Virus record (IMG/VR): IMGVR_UViG_2657244986_000007
Coordinates: 1-17,428 of that record
Reading direction: 5' to 3' (one strand)
DNA: 17,428 bases
Source of the DNA: a virus
Lineage: Duplodnaviria > Heunggongvirae > Uroviricota > Caudoviricetes
Below are positions 8,814 through 17,428 of the stretch, one piece after another. Numbering within the stretch: position 1 is the stretch's first letter; the number at the start of each line of letters is the position of its first letter. The notes below the pieces were generated by a model. The model saw only the letters and a list, made by a program, of their open reading frames with translations. It did no database searches and was not told where the DNA came from. The position numbers and the translations under genes were made by a program.

Positions 8814-10166
<1,353 letters not shown>

Positions 10167-10216
10167 TCCTCACCTCGATTTCGATAACCAAAAAACAAAC
10201 TATTTTCCGTTTAAAA

Positions 10217-10284
10217 ACAATGGAGTTTGTTTTTCACGCCCCTTTTTACAATATTTCTTGTTTACAACATACAATCTTTCTTGT
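10217..10284. promoter_or_regulatory. Left operator OL (three 434-type sites) with pL
   Basis: ACAATGGAGTTTGT (10217-10230), ACAATATTTCTTGT (10248-10261) and ACAATCTTTCTTGT (10271-10284), all ACAA-N6-TTGT. Confidence 0.85.
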
Positions 10285-10328
10285 AATTTTAAGCCATCAG
10301 CAGGACGCACTAACCACCATTGAAGGTG

Positions 10329-10359
10329 AGGCTCTTAAAAATTTAGCCCTGAAGAAGGG
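10329..10359 (+). promoter_or_regulatory. nutL (boxA plus boxB hairpin)
   Basis: GGCTCTTAAAAATTTAGCCCTGAAGAAGGGC: boxA-like GCTCTTAAA and the boxB stem-loop GCCCTGAAGAAGGGC. Confidence 0.8.
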
Positions 10360-10470
10360 CAGCATTCAAAGCAGAAAGCTTTGAGTAGCGCGAAATGCAG
10401 CTGCAAGGCAGCAACCGTGGAGATAAGCATCACGGCGCGTTACTCAAAGCTAACTGACAGGAGAATCCAG

Positions 10471-11368
<898 letters not shown>

Positions 11369-11401
11369 TTAAAAGACAGGCATACTAATAAACACTGCAC
11401 T

Positions 11402-11429
11402 GTGTATTCATTCCAACGAGTGAATACAC
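11402..11429. repeat. Perfect 9-bp inverted repeat, GTGTATTCA-N10-TGAATACAC
   Basis: Seen directly in the sequence. No U-tract on either strand, so it looks operator-like or RNA-structural rather than a terminator. Confidence 0.6.
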
Positions 11430-11491
11430 GGAGCAATGTCGCTCGTAACTAAACAGGAGCCGACTTGTTCTGATTATTGGAAATCTTCTTT

Positions 11492-11519
11492 GCCCTCCAA
11501 TGTGAGGGCAGTTTTTTTT
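11492..11519 (+). terminator. Intrinsic terminator (tL-like) 13 nt upstream of the next start codon
   Basis: GCCCTC-CAATGT-GAGGGC followed by AGTTTTTTTT. Confidence 0.7.
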
Positions 11520-11532
11520 GACGGAGTAAACG

Positions 11533-11781
11533 ATGATAAAAACTGATTACCCTGCAGAGCTTAAACAAAAAGTAATAACAGCAATTAAATGCTCTTTTAT
11601 CTCATGTCGTACAGATGAAGAACGATATGTCGTTGAGTGTGCAATTGTCGAGTTTCTCACAGCGATGGAATTTACCGCTGCAGAATCAATAGATGTATTA
11701 AAGCAATCAGACGGAAATGATATTGAAACGGATGATGTTATTGACCGACTAATAAAATCATTCGAAGAAGAAATAGAGTAG
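11533..11781 (+). CDS. Small acidic protein, 82 aa, unknown function
   Basis: MIKTDYPAELKQKVITAIKCSFISCRTDEERYVVECAIVEF...DGNDIETDDVIDRLIKSFEEEIE, with an acidic C-terminus. GGAG Shine-Dalgarno upstream. Confidence 0.65.
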   Translation: MIKTDYPAELKQKVITAIKCSFISCRTDEERYVVECAIVEFLTAMEFTAAESIDVLKQSDGNDIETDDVIDRLIKSFEEEIE

Positions 11782-11864
11782 CCGCCTGAGCGCGGCTTTA
11801 CCGCATACCAATAATGCTTCACGAGAGGCATTTTCGTTATGCAATCAAATATAAGGAGTTACCC

Positions 11865-11999
11865 ATGATGCACTTTCAGCTCGCGGGTAGCGGCGTCATG
11901 TCCGCTTTCTACCCGCACGAATCTGAATTATCACGCCGAGTTAAACAATTAATCAGAGCAGCAAAGAAACAACTGGAGGCGTTATGCGCAATGAAATAG
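11865..11999 (+). CDS. cIII: CIII-like small protein (putative FtsH-inhibitor helix), 44 aa
   Basis: MMHFQLAGSGVMSAFYPHESELSRRVKQLIRAAKKQLEALCAMK. Its central amphipathic helix resembles lambda CIII (ESLLERITRKLRDGWKRL). AAGGAG Shine-Dalgarno upstream. Confidence 0.55.
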   Translation: MMHFQLAGSGVMSAFYPHESELSRRVKQLIRAAKKQLEALCAMK

Positions 12000-12136
12000 C
12001 CATTAATCACCAGATGCTTCGTGCTGCACAGAACAAAGCAGTAATAGCCAGATTTATTGGTGATTCCAAAATGTGGCTTGAAGCAAATAAAGCGATGAAA
12101 TCAGCCATCAACCTTCCGTGGTATCGCAGGAAATGA
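11984..12136 (+). CDS. Small protein, 50 aa, possibly Kil-like
   Basis: Hand translation: MRNEIAINHQMLRAAQNKAVIARFIGDSKMWLEANKAMKSAINLPWYRRK. GGAGG Shine-Dalgarno upstream; overlaps the cIII-like 3' end in another frame. The Kil assignment is a recollection of a FIGDxKM-like motif, unverified. Confidence 0.4.
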   Translation: MRNEIAINHQMLRAAQNKAVIARFIGDSKMWLEANKAMKSAINLPWYRRK

Positions 12137-12211
12137 GTTTTACAGATAACTGGTAAGACGAAGAATTCATTCGTCAGATGAAAGAATTAATCGGTAACGA
12201 AGGAGATATTC

Positions 12212-12382
12212 ATGTCACTTGCAACCACAGTGAAGGAGAGCAAGTTACAGAGACGCATGTACACGCAGAAAGCTCTCTGGTATCGCCATAATGGCGACCG
12301 CGAAGGAATGCGGGTATGCCTTAATTTGTCCCGAGTCGAAGTATTAAATCAGCGTTATTTTCTTGGGCCATGTCCATTCTGA
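12212..12382 (+). CDS. Small hypothetical protein, 56 aa
   Basis: MSLATTVKESKLQRRMYTQKALWYRHNGDREGMRVCLNLSRVEVLNQRYFLGPCPF. AAGGAGA Shine-Dalgarno upstream. Ends 8 nt before the annealing-protein start. Confidence 0.4.
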   Translation: MSLATTVKESKLQRRMYTQKALWYRHNGDREGMRVCLNLSRVEVLNQRYFLGPCPF

Positions 12383-12390
12383 GGTGATTT

Positions 12391-13098
12391 ATGGATTTGA
12401 ATAAATTCGATGAGCCATTCAGCCCTGAAGATATCGAATGGCGAATACAGCAAAGCGGTAAAACACGCGATGGCAAAGTGTGGGCTATGGTGCTGGCTTA
12501 TGTCACGAACCGGGCAATCATGAAACGCCTGGACGATGTTTGCGGCAAAGCAGGATGGCGCAATGAATACCGCGATATTCCCAACAACGGAGGCGTTGAA
12601 TGCGGCATATCAATCAGGATTGATTCCGAATGGGTAACCAAATGGGATGCTGCTGAAAACACGCAGGTAGAAGCCGTCAAAGGTGGTCGTTCAGGTGCAA
12701 TGAAGCGTGCTGCCGTTCAGTGGGGAATCGGTCGGTATCTGTATAACCTTGAGGAAGGTTTCGCACAAACATCTCTCGATAAAAAGCATGGGTGGCACAG
12801 GGCAAAACTGAAGGATGGAACAGGATTTTACTGGTCCCCTCCATCGCTGCCGGGCTGGGCAATCCCAGCATCAGATAACAAACCATCACCAGAAAATACC
12901 AACCAGAAATCTCCATCGGTTGACTGCGAACAAATCCTGAAAGACTTCAGCGATTATGCGTCAACAGAAACTGACAAGAAAAAACTCATCGAGCGTTATC
13001 AGCGTGACTGGCAATTAATGGCTGGCAACGAGGAGGCGCAGGCTAAATGCGTTCAGGTAATGAACATCAGAGTTAACGAGCTAAAACAGGCGGCATAA
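12391..13098 (+). CDS. Single-strand annealing recombinase, Rad52/Rad22 family, 235 aa
   Basis: Central motif ...GGRSGAMKRAAVQWGIGRYLYNL... is typical of Rad52-type phage annealing proteins. Located upstream of SSB and an exonuclease. Confidence 0.8.
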   Translation: MDLNKFDEPFSPEDIEWRIQQSGKTRDGKVWAMVLAYVTNRAIMKRLDDVCGKAGWRNEYRDIPNNGGVECGISIRIDSEWVTKWDAAENTQVEAVKGGRSGAMKRAAVQWGIGRYLYNLEEGFAQTSLDKKHGWHRAKLKDGTGFYWSPPSLPGWAIPASDNKPSPENTNQKSPSVDCEQILKDFSDYASTETDKKKLIERYQRDWQLMAGNEEAQAKCVQVMNIRVNELKQAA

Positions 13099-13572
13099 AT
13101 GGCAAGCAGAGGCGTAAATAAGGTGATCATTATTGGTCGCCTTGGGCATGATCCAGAAATCAGATATTCACCATCAGGAACGGCATTTGCAAACCTTACA
13201 GTTGCTACGTCAGAACAATGGCGTGATAAGCAAACTGGAGAGCAAAAGGAGCAGACGGAGTGGCACCGCGTGGTAATGAGCGGGAAACTGGCAGAAATTG
13301 CCAGCGAATATCTGCGAAAAGGCTCTGAGGTTTATCTTGAAGGAAAATTGCGGACAAGAAAATGGCAGGATCAAAGCGGACAGGATCGGTTCACTACCGA
13401 AGTCATCGTGGGCGTTGGTGGAACCATGCAAATGCTTGGTGGCAAGCAAGGAGGCAATGAACAGTCTTCACCTCAGCGAAATAACGGCCAGCAACAAAGA
13501 CAGCAATCTCAGCAGCATGGGAATCACAGCGAACCACCTATGAACTTCGACGATTCGGATATTCCGTTCTAG
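13099..13572 (+). CDS. ssb: Single-stranded DNA-binding protein (SSB), 157 aa
   Basis: OB-fold N-terminus ([43 protein letters not shown]...TEWHRVV), Gly/Gln-rich linker and acidic tail ending DDSDIPF. Confidence 0.95.
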
Positions 13573-13581
13573 GAGCTGAAT

Positions 13582-14061
13582 ATGAAAGTCTGCTCAAGAT
13601 GCCATCAACAGAAGGAAGAAAGGGACTTTCAAATCAGAAGAGCATCCAGAGATGGATTAACTGCCGCTTGCCGGGCTTGCCTGGCTGAATACGACAAAGA
13701 ACGCGCTGGATTGCCACATCGAGTATCAGCAAGGAGAGAATATCAATCATCGGAACGCGGAAGAGAACGGTGTAACGCAGCCAAAAAGCGGTTCATTCAG
13801 AGCAACCCATGGAAAAGAAAAGCCCACATCATTGTGGGTAATTTTTTGCGCGACGGTAAGCTAATCCGACCACCACAATGTGAGTGCTGCGGATCAGAAT
13901 GTAAACCACAGGCGCACCACTGCGACTACAGCAAACCAACCGATGTGATGTGGCTCTGCAAGTCATGTCATGTCGAGTGGCACAAACATAACAAACCTAT
14001 CTACCCAGACGAGGAACCAGTAACTCTCCCCTTCCCTCGTCACGCTATTCACGCAATTTAA
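13582..14061 (+). CDS. HNH-family endonuclease, 159 aa
   Basis: Cys pairs CSRCH, CRAC and CECCG, plus ...QAHHCDYSKPTDVMWLCKSCHVEWH, consistent with an HNH/zinc-binding nuclease motif. Confidence 0.7.
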   Translation: MKVCSRCHQQKEERDFQIRRASRDGLTAACRACLAEYDKERAGLPHRVSARREYQSSERGRERCNAAKKRFIQSNPWKRKAHIIVGNFLRDGKLIRPPQCECCGSECKPQAHHCDYSKPTDVMWLCKSCHVEWHKHNKPIYPDEEPVTLPFPRHAIHAI

Positions 14062-14069
14062 GGACTTAC

Positions 14070-14618
14070 ATGAATCACTTGATGGTTGACCTTGAAACAA
14101 TGGGCAACGGGCCATACGCGCCAGTTATTTCTATTGGGGCGGTATTCTTTGACCCGAATACCGGAGAAACAGGAGAAGAGTTCTCGGTAAATATCTCGCT
14201 TGAATCATCAATGCGATATCGAGCGCGTCCTGACGCTTCAACGATTTTATGGTGGCTGGAACAGAGTGAAGAAGCCAGAAAATCGCTAACCAGCAACACT
14301 CAGGAGCTTTCAACGGCTCTTTCATGGTTATCTGAATTCATCATAAAGAACGCTAACCACAAATTCGTTCAGGTTTGGGGGAATGGAGCATCATTTGACT
14401 GCGTTATTCTCCGAAACAGTTATTCGCTGACAGGGCAGCCAGTTCCGTGGCAGTGGTGGAATGACCGCGACGTAAGAACAATCGTCGAACTTGGGAAGGT
14501 AATAGGATTCGACCCTAAGCGAGATATGCCATTCAAAGGAACTCGCCACAACGCGCTTGATGATGCCATTCACCAAGCCAAATACGTTTCAGCGATCTGG
14601 AAAAAGTTAGCTAAATAA
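14070..14618 (+). CDS. 3'-5' exonuclease, DEDD (DnaQ-like) family, 182 aa
   Basis: Exo I motif MVDLETMG and Exo III motif H-NALDDA; size and layout fit DEDDh exonucleases. Confidence 0.8.
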   Translation: MNHLMVDLETMGNGPYAPVISIGAVFFDPNTGETGEEFSVNISLESSMRYRARPDASTILWWLEQSEEARKSLTSNTQELSTALSWLSEFIIKNANHKFVQVWGNGASFDCVILRNSYSLTGQPVPWQWWNDRDVRTIVELGKVIGFDPKRDMPFKGTRHNALDDAIHQAKYVSAIWKKLAK

Positions 14619-14634
14619 TCAACAGGAGAAAACC

Positions 14635-14931
14635 ATGCCAGCGCCTCTGTATGGTGCGGATGACGCGCGCCGCTGTTCCGGCAATTCCGTATCGGAGGTG
14701 CTGGATAAATTCAGAAAAAACTACGATCGGATAATGTCGCTACCGCAGGAAACGAAAGAGGAAAAGGAATTTCGCCATTGTATATGGCTTGCAGAGAAAG
14801 AAGAACGAGAGCGAATTTACCAGACATCAATCCGACCATTCCGCAAAGCCACATATACCCAATTCCCTGAATATATCGACCCGCGCCTGCGTAATTACCG
14901 CTCACGCTATGGCGCTATCAGTAATGACTGA
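14635..14931 (+). CDS. Hypothetical protein, 98 aa
   Basis: ORF with AGGAGA Shine-Dalgarno upstream; no recognisable motif. Confidence 0.55.
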
Positions 14932-14941
14932 GGAATTTACC

Positions 14942-15109
14942 ATGAGAGGACTTGCATACAATCCCGGCATTCTTCCGGCAGAAATGATTATTCGCCAACG
15001 CGTAAAGCCAATGCCATCGAGAGAGGAATTGCTTAAGAGAAAGAGTTTCGGTTCTGTTAATGACAACAAATATCTGAATGCGATGTTGCGCAAAGGAGGC
15101 AACCGGTGA
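14942..15109 (+). CDS. Hypothetical small protein, 55 aa
   Basis: [55 protein letters not shown], with GAGGAA upstream. The track ORF 14789..15109 is probably an extension. Confidence 0.45.
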
Positions 15110-15189
15110 CTGGACATGCAGCGATCCTCGACATGTGCTGTGGCAGCCGCATGTTCTGGTTAGATAAGAATGACGAACGGGCGAGATAA
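15106..15189 (+). pseudogene. 27-codon ORF with a strong RBS, possibly a truncated methyltransferase N-terminus (gene remnant)
   Basis: AGGAGG lies 5 nt before a GTG that overlaps the preceding stop (GTGA). Peptide (M)[26 protein letters not shown]; ILDMCCGS resembles SAM-binding motif I. Stops in all frames follow. Confidence 0.3.
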
Positions 15190-15239
15190 GCGATCGGTTA
15201 AGTGCTATAGTAATGCGCTTTTGTATTTATGGAGTGAAT

Positions 15240-15938
15240 ATGAAAAATATCCTACTGGCATCATTGTTAGTGGCATCGCCGGGTGCATTTGCAGCCAGCT
15301 TTGACTGCCAAAAGGCTTCGACAGCAATCGAACATAAAATCTGCGATAACGAACGTCTGTCAAAATTAGACGAACAGCTTAGCTCTGCCTATTCTAGTGC
15401 CCTCAAAGAAAACCCAGAGAACGCAGACACCATAAAAATGGTTCAACGTCAGTGGGTAAATATGCGTGGAAAACTCACTGATAATAAGGCTCTGGAGCTG
15501 GCTTATCTTATCCAAATTAATGGCCTCAAAGGTTTGGGGAGTTCAGTCAGCGTAACAGCGGCCAATGAGATACCCACGTCGACGCAGAAACATTCTGAAG
15601 AGCAGGAAGAAACAAGTAAGGCAGAAGTTAAGTCGGTCAAGAACGGCAATAAGCTAACCTTAGAGTCATTCCGAGCTAAATATGTAGAAGTAGATGGTGA
15701 GTATTACAGCACGACATCCATTCCTAGAGGCAGTTCGTTCTTGTTCACTTGCGCCAGTCGTATTGCTGATGACCAAGTGAATGTTTGGAAGAAACATGCA
15801 GCCAAAGAGGGCAAAATCGACCTATTCTTTGAGGTTGAGAATCACTTACACACTGCTATGTTGAACGCCAATTTCCAGAAGTTGAATTCAGACCCTGCCA
15901 AAAGAGGTATTTGTAATCTGATTAACGCAGTGCCGTAA
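15240..15938 (+). CDS. Secreted protein with an N-terminal LprI-like (DUF1311, lysozyme-inhibitor-like) domain, 232 aa
   Basis: Signal peptide MKNILLASLLVASPGAFA, then FDCQKASTAIEHKICDNERLSKLDEQLSSAYSSALKE...QRQWVNMRG, the hallmark DUF1311 pattern. AT-rich gene. The track start at 15213 is an extension. Confidence 0.75.
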   Translation: MKNILLASLLVASPGAFAASFDCQKASTAIEHKICDNERLSKLDEQLSSAYSSALKENPENADTIKMVQRQWVNMRGKLTDNKALELAYLIQINGLKGLGSSVSVTAANEIPTSTQKHSEEQEETSKAEVKSVKNGNKLTLESFRAKYVEVDGEYYSTTSIPRGSSFLFTCASRIADDQVNVWKKHAAKEGKIDLFFEVENHLHTAMLNANFQKLNSDPAKRGICNLINAVP

Positions 15939-15948
15939 GTAAATTTAG

Positions 15949-15978
15949 GGCCACAGTTGTGGCCTTAAATATTTTTTC
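15949..15978 (+). terminator. Putative intrinsic terminator after the LprI-like gene
   Basis: GGCCA-CAGTTG-TGGCC followed by TTAAATATTTTTT. Confidence 0.55.
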
Positions 15979-16106
15979 AGCCTTTTCTTATTTGTAATAA
16001 GCAGTACTTAGTAGTGCTTATAAAACAGAATAAAAAACATATGACTTTGGCGATTACCCAGTAAAGATATTCGAAATAAATGTAAATATCGGCAATGAAT
16101 AACAAT

Positions 16107-16133
16107 CCTCGCACTCGCGGGGATTTCTTTTAT
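16107..16133 (+). terminator. Hairpin plus U-tract immediately upstream of the 16145 gene (terminator or attenuator-like)
   Basis: CCTCGC-ACTC-GCGGGG (one G.U pair) followed by ATTTCTTTTAT. The RBS GGGGA and the ATG follow within about 12 nt. Confidence 0.4.
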
Positions 16134-16144
16134 ATGGGGATAAT

Positions 16145-16945
16145 ATGACCATCCACTTTCACGGCAGCCCAATATGGGGGGATGAGCATGCCCCTACAGA
16201 TATGCTGATTAAAGCCCTTTACCGTGATGGTGGGGCTTTTGTTTCATTTGCCAGACCAGAGCAGATGAAAAAGATTGCCATGTTCCCTTGTGATATACGC
16301 CTTGATAACGGCGCTTTTAGCGACTGGATGAAAGCATTAAAGAAAGGCACTCCGGTAGACTGGAGTAAGAGGCGAGCAAAATTCTACGACTTTGTTGGGA
16401 AGTGGTTCAGCAGAATTGAATGGTTTCTTATACCTGACGTTATCGAAGGGACAGAGGCAGAAAACGACGAGCAGATTGAGTTGGTTCCTGATTGGCTAAA
16501 ATCAAAAGCGGTTCCGGTCTGGCATACCGACGAATCAATTGAACGTCTTTTACGCCTTTCTGGCAAATTTGAATGGGTGGCGATTGGATGCTGCGGCCCA
16601 CACAGGCACATACGCTCTAAATGGTGGGAACAGAGAATGGATGAAGTTTTCACTGAGCTTTATATCAATCGTAATTTGAAAGTGAAAATTCATGGTCTTC
16701 GAATGCTCGACGTGAGAGTTCTTGGTATGTATCCGTTCGCCAGTGCGGATTCTACTAATGTTGCTGTTAACGTACCGAAGACAGAGAAGCGATTTCCTGA
16801 GATTACTGACAAACTGGCACGTACAGCTGTACTTCGCGCTGCTATTGAAAAGGTGCACCCGCCATCGATATCAGCATGGGTAGACAGAAAGATGAGAGAG
16901 CCGGCGCAAGCCGGTTTTTTATTTGAATTCACCGACGCCGCTTAA
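16145..16945 (+). CDS. Protein of unknown function, 266 aa
   Basis: Long ORF preceded by GGGGA. No motif I can assign with confidence (no P-loop, no PP-loop, no HTH recognised). Confidence 0.75.
   Translation: MTIHFHGSPIWGDEHAPTDMLIKALYRDGGAFVSFARPEQMKKIAMFPCDIRLDNGAFSDWMKALKKGTPVDWSKRRAKFYDFVGKWFSRIEWFLIPDVIEGTEAENDEQIELVPDWLKSKAVPVWHTDESIERLLRLSGKFEWVAIGCCGPHRHIRSKWWEQRMDEVFTELYINRNLKVKIHGLRMLDVRVLGMYPFASADSTNVAVNVPKTEKRFPEITDKLARTAVLRAAIEKVHPPSISAWVDRKMREPAQAGFLFEFTDAA
16899..16924 (+). terminator. Intrinsic-terminator-like hairpin with a GCAA tetraloop inside the last 15 codons of the 16145 gene
   Basis: CCGGC-GCAA-GCCGG followed by TTTTTTATTT. Confidence 0.55.
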
Positions 16946-16964
16946 TGCGGATTTCTTTTATCTG

Positions 16965-16989
16965 AACTCGCTACGGCGAGTTTTGTTTT
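16965..16989 (+). terminator. Intrinsic terminator downstream of the 16145 gene
   Basis: AACTCGC-TACG-GCGAGTT followed by TTTGTTTT. Confidence 0.6.
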
Positions 16990-17002
16990 ATGGAGATGAT
17001 AA

Positions 17003-17170
17003 ATGCACTTCCGAGTAACAGGTGAATGGAATGGAGAACCATTCAACAGAGTTATCGAAGCAGAGAACATCAACGACTGCTATGACCACTGGATGCTGTG
17101 GGCGCAGATGGCACATGCAGACGTAACCAATATTCGAATTGAAGAACTGAAAGAACACCAAGCCGCCTGA
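17003..17170 (+). CDS. Small hypothetical protein, about 55 aa
   Basis: MHFRVTGEWNGEPFNRVIEAENINDCYDHWMLWAQMAHADVTNIRIEELKEH.... GGAGA Shine-Dalgarno upstream. The 3' end is uncertain by a few nt: my hand reading and the ORF track disagree on the stop position. Confidence 0.4.
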   Translation: MHFRVTGEWNGEPFNRVIEAENINDCYDHWMLWAQMAHADVTNIRIEELKEHQAA

Positions 17171-17186
17171 TGGCGGTTTTTTATTG
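17160..17186 (+). terminator. Intrinsic terminator
   Basis: CCGCC-TGAT-GGCGG followed by TTTTTTATT. Confidence 0.7.
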
Positions 17187-17227
17187 CCTGATTTGCAGGT
17201 TCGATTCCCTATTCGGAGATAGCACTC

Positions 17228-17428
17228 ATGCAACACGAACTACAGCCTGATTCACTGGTTGATTTGAAATTCATCATGGCCGATACTGGATTCGGTAAAA
17301 CCTTCATCTATGACCGGATTAAGTCCGGAGACCTTCCAAAAGCCAAAGTTATCCACGGGCGAGCAAGATGGTTATATCGTGACCATTGTGAATTCAAAAA
17401 TAAGCTCTTAAGCCGCGCCAATGGGTAA
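17228..17428 (+). CDS. Excisionase / AlpA-family small DNA-binding protein (Xis-like), 66 aa
   Basis: ...LKFIMADTGFGKTFIYDRIKSGDLPKAKVIHGRARWLYRDHCEF... looks like an AlpA/Xis-type HTH. It sits at the distal end of the leftward operon where xis is expected; integrase would lie beyond the window. Confidence 0.55.
   Translation: MQHELQPDSLVDLKFIMADTGFGKTFIYDRIKSGDLPKAKVIHGRARWLYRDHCEFKNKLLSRANG

Follow-up and report, generated by a model that had tools for sequence, protein, structure and literature searches.

The non-coding stretch at 11387-11519 (+ strand) of the window, meaning the whole 17,428-nt stretch of phage DNA analysed here, is very probably the ortholog of PreS (LPR1), a small RNA of phage lambda, with a structured hairpin placed before it; the phage itself is lambdoid and HK446/Sf6-like. 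Positions 11387-11517 are identical to the lambda ral-ea10 intergenic region (lambda 33925-34055) at 128 of 131 nucleotides (98%). The homology of the spacer to lambda falls in two pieces with the ral gene between them, and the other piece, 11297-11382, shows 87% identity to the lambda sieB(git)-ral spacer. LPR1, later renamed PreS, was described as a small RNA located "between ea10 and ral" in lambda and strongly enriched with Hfq (Silverman et al., bioRxiv 10.1101/2024.10.31.621285). According to the same work it appears in the lytic cycle only, as bands of about 88 and 68 nt, its 3' end is the terminator tL2a, and its Hfq-dependent action raises dnaN and lowers alaS, both effects being proven by compensatory mutations. 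Translation of dnaN is activated by pairing upstream of the start codon, which opens the ribosome-binding site. Deletion of the PreS seed or of the whole PreS in lambda results in less phage DNA and a lower plaque yield in an Hfq-dependent manner, and homologs, which were considered in the preprint only at 92% identity or more, are widely conserved (10.1101/2024.10.31.621285).

The full-length PreS ortholog (about 88 nt in lambda) is placed at 11431-11519 (+) by the identity to lambda. The +1 at 11431 is derived from the cloning primer of the lambda authors, P810 GAGCAATGTCGCTCGTAACT, beginning GAGCAATGTCGC, together with the northern band of about 88 nt. When counted back from the U-tract, the form of about 68 nt (LPR1-S) would start around 11448-11452, in the AU-rich linker that directly precedes the internal hairpin at 11452-11469. 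The strand, the place in the pL operon, the terminator, the seed with both triplets mutated in lambda and the complementarity to the dnaN leader are all shared with lambda PreS. The U-tract is T6 in lambda and T8 here, with one further difference in the terminator loop. In lambda ral lies before PreS, whereas ral is absent from the window and the module directly follows a stretch resembling the antisense RNA sas. The gene downstream is ea10 in lambda and a member of an anti-restriction family here, standing at the ea10 position. Expression, Hfq binding and regulation of dnaN and alaS would be expected in the window phage by analogy with lambda. The PreS/tL2a element is thus already known from lambda, and the loss of ral and the longer U-tract are its sole unusual traits here.

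No Rfam model matched the window at the gathering threshold, and within 11250-11600 the Rfam matches (RyhB, SNORA27, others) were at chance level (E >= 1). A search of full-text literature with the seed sequence returned one unrelated paper containing lambda sequence and nothing else. Several known prophage RNAs were considered as well. StxS of Stx phages is likewise a short Hfq-associated RNA of lambdoid phages that ends at an intrinsic terminator subject to antitermination (10.1101/2024.10.31.621285, discussion), however RNAs of the StxS type share no sequence similarity with PreS, belong to the late Q-controlled operon and have other targets. RalA of the Rac prophage, considered on account of the ral neighbourhood, is an unrelated RNA encoded within ydaC on the other strand, while svsR (3' end of cI) and HnrS (late genes) are encoded at other loci.

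By sequence comparison the window as a whole belongs to a mosaic lambdoid phage of the HK446/Sf6 type. Over the 242 nt of 11291-11532 it is 100% identical to HK446, where this segment is an unannotated spacer between HK446_037 and HK446_036. The same 242-nt query, which includes lambda-type sequence, found matches in 2243 of 5426 complete E. coli genomes and in 390 phage records. With the HK446 annotation mapped onto the window, the + strand order is repressor (9133-9765), pL region, N, the sieB-like gene on the - strand (there 10787-11281), the spacer, HK446_036, cIII and kil. The pL-operon N-utilisation site lies upstream of the module at 10330-10361 (+), was recognised by reading the sequence and from the HK446 and HK620 annotations, and consists of a boxA-like GGCTCTTA and a boxB identical to GCCCTGAAGAAGGGC, which makes it a nutL of the lambda type. 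It is followed by the antiterminator gene N (10471-10794, +; HK446_038 "anti-termination protein N"; PHROG 271, N-like, E = 1.7e-20) and by the sieB-like gene (10787-11290, -), whose HK620 counterpart is hkaP, "putative superinfection exclusion". When the HK446, HK620 and lambda annotations are aligned to the window, the module stands on the strand of the pL operon, with N and sieB before it and cIII, kil and the recombination genes after it.

The next gene, HK446_036, starts at the ATG at 11533, extends to 11781 (+), encodes 82 aa and falls into PHROG 14587 ("anti-restriction protein", E = 2e-48); its Shine-Dalgarno sequence is read as GGAG at 11523-11526 (+). Only transcription that reads through the terminator reaches this gene. 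A second terminator-like hairpin, AATGCTTCACGAGAGGCATT followed by TTCGTT, was noticed further downstream at 11813-11832 (+), where it is homologous to HK620 tL2B and overlaps the annotated start of HK446 cIII (11814-11999). An ATGATG near 11866 with GGAG upstream would be a better placed cIII start, and the annotated gene may thus be longer than the real one.

The 3' end of the module is formed by an intrinsic terminator (11490-11519, +) homologous to tL2a, which received 8 pairs, 5 of them G-C, a loop of 6 and the tail TTTTTTTT in the terminator scan. GCCCTC (11492-11497) and GAGGGC (11504-11509) form the stem around the loop CAATGT (11498-11503), then follow AG and T8 (11512-11519), and the 13 nt of 11520-11532, with the GGAG inside, separate the end of T8 from the ATG at 11533. 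The first-pass annotation had reported the same hairpin, T-run and 13-nt distance in these positions, and had called the stretch structured. As an RNA, 11387-11519 has a folding energy of -46.1 kcal/mol, whereas dinucleotide shuffles give -27.0±3.4 (z = -5.7; none of 200 as good), and the hairpin at its 5' edge carries compensatory changes across homologs, in agreement with that description. These changes, and the recurrence of the surrounding 242 nt in E. coli genomes and phage records, show that the features exceed chance. The annotation had left the choice between a tL-type terminator gating the distal pL genes and the 3' end of a prophage small RNA. A G+C-rich hairpin with a T-run lies on the operon strand, a lambda-type nut site and an N gene stand upstream in the same transcript, and HK620 (AF335538) carries the label terminator tL2A on the homologous hairpin, which has the same operon position downstream of nutL and N as in lambda. 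A terminator of the tL type is thus supported, and suppression of the window copy by N is predicted by homology. Since tL2a is also the 3' end of the Hfq-dependent lambda PreS/LPR1, the terminator and the small RNA readings are both correct at once.

Upstream of the terminator lies the seed (11466-11492, +), a single-stranded U-rich stretch recognised by duplex calculation and by the mutagenesis primers used in lambda. When primers P838, P839 and P888 are mapped, the M1 triplet CTG (11470-11472) and the M2 triplet GAA (11480-11482), which are the dnaN and the alaS mutation in lambda, respectively (10.1101/2024.10.31.621285), are both intact. The seed is complementary to -47..-17 of the E. coli K-12 dnaN mRNA, inside the 3' end of dnaA, with a duplex energy of -32.3 kcal/mol against -17.6±3.1, a value reached by none of 1000 shuffled seeds. 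The duplex contains two perfect blocks, 12 nt (-47..-36) and 11 nt (-27..-17), the latter including the M1 triplet. These figures belong to the calculation restricted to the seed, which was used instead of that for full-length PreS against 260 nt of dnaN, where the duplexes were long and no better than shuffles. The best duplex with alaS (-16..+9) spans the ribosome-binding site and the start codon and contains the M2 triplet, however 83 of 300 shuffles were as good, so this calculation adds no independent support for the alaS target. The U-rich UCUUCUUU, the GCCCUC/GAGGGC hairpin and U8 follow one another in the order of a predicted Hfq-binding module.

Three elements of PreS were returned by RNAalifold: a small hairpin GAGC/GCUC which is invariant, a hairpin AACAGG/CUUGUU, and the U-rich seed, which is unpaired, with the terminator after it. 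In the second of these (11452-11469, +; AACAGG-AGCCGA-CTTGTT in DNA), pair counts show one pair changed from A-U to G-C in 14 sequences and another varying among G.U, A-U and G-C.

At the 5' edge of the module, homology to lambda starts at 11387, and the left edge AATAAACACTGCACT (11387-11401, +) is conserved in the alignment named A2. The GCAC directly before the hairpin is nearly invariant, and the TAA within this edge serves as the stop codon of the upstream gene in many relatives, including P22, where ORF67 ends there. Hairpin 1 (11402-11429, +) has a stem of 12 bp, GTGTATTCATTC/GAGTGAATACAC, with one U.G pair and the loop CAAC, and it ends 1 nt before the PreS +1. The perfect 9-bp inverted repeat pointed out earlier, GTGTATTCA (11402-11410) and TGAATACAC (11421-11429), is present and extends to this stem. 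The hairpin is real, but it lies outside the mature small RNA, immediately 5' of the +1.

For the alignment a conserved 19-mer GAGCAATNTCGCTCGTAAC was used, which hit 30 stretches in species-representative genomes, some of which match by chance and are unrelated, and more than 119 viral contigs; filtering left 99 distinct homologous sequences, with hairpin 1 in columns 15-42. Eight of the 12 pairs of hairpin 1 are changed on both sides with pairing kept, and 99.4% of cells are paired; when the partner is slid by 1-3 columns as a control, pairing drops to 28-49%. At least four unrelated stems were found, namely the lambda type, P22 (ATAGCAGA/TCTGCTAT), ST104 (AATGACCA/TGGTCATT) and L042 (AATGCGGA/TCCGCATT). 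It can be said that the structure of hairpin 1 is conserved while its sequence is free, as judged by comparison of homologs. Because one position is a U.G pair in 97 of 99 sequences, and such pairs fit the + strand alone, hairpin 1 is a + strand RNA only. Types of hairpin 1 and types of PreS body occur in mixed combinations, therefore the hairpin need not pair with the body of the small RNA. A role as an RNase III site was also considered. The lambda-type stem can be extended to about 22 bp (82% complementarity), but the P22, ST104 and L042 types reach only 8-9 bp, thus a general RNase III role is not favoured. The boxA-like CGCTCGTA at 11440-11447 was rejected as a nut-like site, one-mismatch boxA matches being at chance (13 found, 12.5 expected).

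One alternative would be that the site is the intrinsic terminator tL2a and nothing else, gating the distal pL genes until N accumulates, with no trans-acting RNA function here. The strong hairpin with U8 standing 13 nt before the next gene, the nutL and N upstream and the plain label in HK620 all agree with it, as does the enrichment of terminator-like sites in 9000-17428 (21 against 8.3±2.5 in shuffles). On the distal pL strand strong terminator-like hairpins are dense (15943-15970, 16104-16125, 16895-16920, 16964-16983 and 17160-17179, all +), several of them sit directly before ORF starts, and the second and the last coincide with the terminators which the first-pass annotation had indicated near 16107 and 17160. 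Nevertheless a terminator alone leaves unaccounted for both the roughly 60 nt 5' of the terminator hairpin, which are near-invariant across hundreds of phages, and the perfect 12-nt and 11-nt complementarity to the dnaN leader, and the lambda sequence acts in trans, with proof by compensatory mutations (10.1101/2024.10.31.621285). The roles of terminator and small RNA are moreover compatible, and this alternative bears only on the exclusive form of the claim, in which it is considered improbable.

It has also to be weighed whether the inverted repeat of 9-12 bp serves the divergent sieB-like gene, as an operator in the DNA or as an element of the - strand, instead of being a structure in the pL transcript. 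A palindrome-like repeat about 110 nt upstream of the sieB-like gene start, with other repeats nearby, would suit such a function. The arms of hairpin 1 are, however, fully replaced in relatives with the pairing kept (four stems, 8 covarying pairs), which is the opposite of what a protein-binding site does, and its U.G pairs become C.A mismatches on the - strand. The hairpin also travels with PreS in lambda and P22, where ral and other genes stand between it and sieB, and an operator is accordingly regarded as very improbable. Still less credence is given to a small protein encoded by the 36-codon ORF from the ATG at 11436 (11436-11546, +; MSLVTKQEPTCSDYWKSSLPSNVRAVFFDGVNDDKN), which is open in frame 3 of 11380-11600 and has a GGAG just upstream. 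This GGAG is merely 2 nt from the ATG, the frame in lambda ends elsewhere, after the terminator, and an insertion of 12-13 nt shifts it in relatives; the ORF would run through PreS and the terminator hairpin. It is probably not a gene, since ATA stands in place of the ATG in every homolog of the P22/ST104 type and also in L119, which is otherwise of the lambda type.

With the site taken as a PreS ortholog, its synthesis may be outlined as follows. Loss of the repressor would start pL transcription, which would proceed through nutL, N, the antisense side of the sieB-like gene and the sas-like region into the module on the + strand. RNA polymerase without N modification would stop at GCCCTC/GAGGGC-U8 (tL2a), and N-modified polymerase would continue past it to transcribe the anti-restriction gene, cIII, kil and the recombination genes. 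Whether formed by termination or by processing, the RNA of about 88 nt (11431-11519) would, like the form of about 68 nt, carry the U-rich single strand, the terminator hairpin and the poly-U. Together with Hfq, the seed at 11466-11492 would base-pair ahead of the dnaN ribosome-binding site, in the 3' end of dnaA, and open that site, so that more sliding clamp would be made to help phage DNA replication; alaS would be repressed by PreS as well. Against this scheme, N-modified polymerase should ignore tL2a, which is at odds with a terminator-defined 3' end of PreS during N-active lytic growth.

The 5' end appears to be formed in another way than by initiation. A consensus scan of 10014-12139 found no sigma-70-like site on the + strand, and an own promoter of PreS was rejected, as the would-be -10 and -35 positions also fall in the freely varying arms of hairpin 1. 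The PreS preprint (10.1101/2024.10.31.621285) mentions neither a promoter nor a processing enzyme nor hairpin 1. Hairpin 1 is under selection as a + strand RNA and must therefore be transcribed, and because it lies upstream of the +1 with no promoter-like site before it, we infer that PreS is cut out of the pL transcript and that hairpin 1 marks or insulates its 5' boundary. In the simplest reading endonuclease cleavage at the 3' foot of hairpin 1 would free PreS and a second cut would give the short form. The hairpin may shield the upstream RNA from 3' exonucleases or insulate the folding of PreS from the upstream gene.

The sequence immediately before the module had been taken for a control region of the convergent gene. 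Instead it is a homolog of the P22 antisense RNA sas (11270-11382, +), revealed by local alignment to sas nt 1-111 (sas sequence from PMC13397905 Table 2). Antisense to the sieB-like gene at its 5' end, it contains two direct repeats of CTGTAGGGGTA, as well as the repeat TCTNNCTGTAGGGGTA at 11293-11308 and 11327-11342. P22 sas switches sieB translation to the Esc product (Ranade and Poteete 1993, as cited in PMC12197685 and PMC13397905), and the homolog suggests a putative translational switch of the SieB/Esc type in the window phage. The sas-like RNA lies on the same strand immediately upstream of the module, but in contrast to PreS it is a cis-antisense RNA, a distinct molecule with no homology to 11387-11519, and is a neighbour of the element. 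In the ral-less window phage the sas-like region, hairpin 1 and PreS follow one another without interruption within 250 nt.

Relatives of the module extend to Salmonella phages. In P22 and ST104 a diverged PreS-like version, about 80% identical in its 5' half, lies between ORF67/orf18 and gene 17, and such cassettes of P22-like phages were located at 866-1018 of the retrieved P22 stretch (L005), at 866-1020 of that of ST104 (L006), and in L118 and L138. The layout is as in the lambda type: hairpin 1, body, seed, terminator, T-run, Shine-Dalgarno sequence and ATG. Their seed carries the 12-13-nt insertion, and the terminator stem is different yet complementary. Against positions -53..-8 of the E. 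coli dnaN leader, the only leader for which pairing of this type was computed, 5, 1 and 0 of 300 shuffles were as good as the P22, ST104 and L118 variants, respectively. Few E. coli genomes contain this type (15 of 5426, 84.5% identity). A study of P22 by small-RNA sequencing reported ten P22 small RNAs, none of them at the homologous locus (PMC13397905). The P22-type variant is a putative small RNA whose complementarity to dnaN is computed in silico.

The cassette was found at 133 loci, where the flanks fall into about 25 sequence clusters upstream and about 20 downstream, in 61 combinations, while the module stays intact; these flank counts are over-estimated because ungapped clustering at 80% splits frame-shifted copies of the same flank. 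The start codon of the gene that follows is usually 10-15 nt after the T-run. As a tentative proposal, which we consider possible though somewhat less than evenly supported, hairpin 1 would act by structure alone, setting or insulating the 5' end of PreS on its excision from the pL transcript; hairpin, small RNA, terminator and Shine-Dalgarno sequence would form a portable cassette exchanged among lambdoid gene contexts, and the family would include P22/ST104-type variants of Salmonella phages with a rewritten seed that still targets the dnaN leader. If this is true, the dnaN-targeting variants would point to long-term selection on hijacking of the host clamp.

The covariation of hairpin 1, the diverged P22/ST104 variants and the adjacent sas homolog go beyond the literature consulted. 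The first two, together with the mobility of the cassette, are modest extensions of a known system. The main value is one of annotation, as the spacer is unannotated in HK446, in the lambda RefSeq record and in thousands of E. coli prophages, and it carries a regulator of host DNA replication that has been characterised in lambda. The hairpin, the mosaic mobility and the Salmonella-phage variants could guide work on how PreS is made and how widely it is used by phages. Short low-coverage contigs assigned to Pseudoxanthomonas, Bradyrhizobium, Arthrobacter and other unrelated bacteria (L008, L010, L020, L028 and similar) also match the PreS 19-mer. One such contig, L008, was examined by sequence and is of the lambda type, one base off lambda, and these matches in unrelated bacterial assemblies look like lambda DNA contamination.
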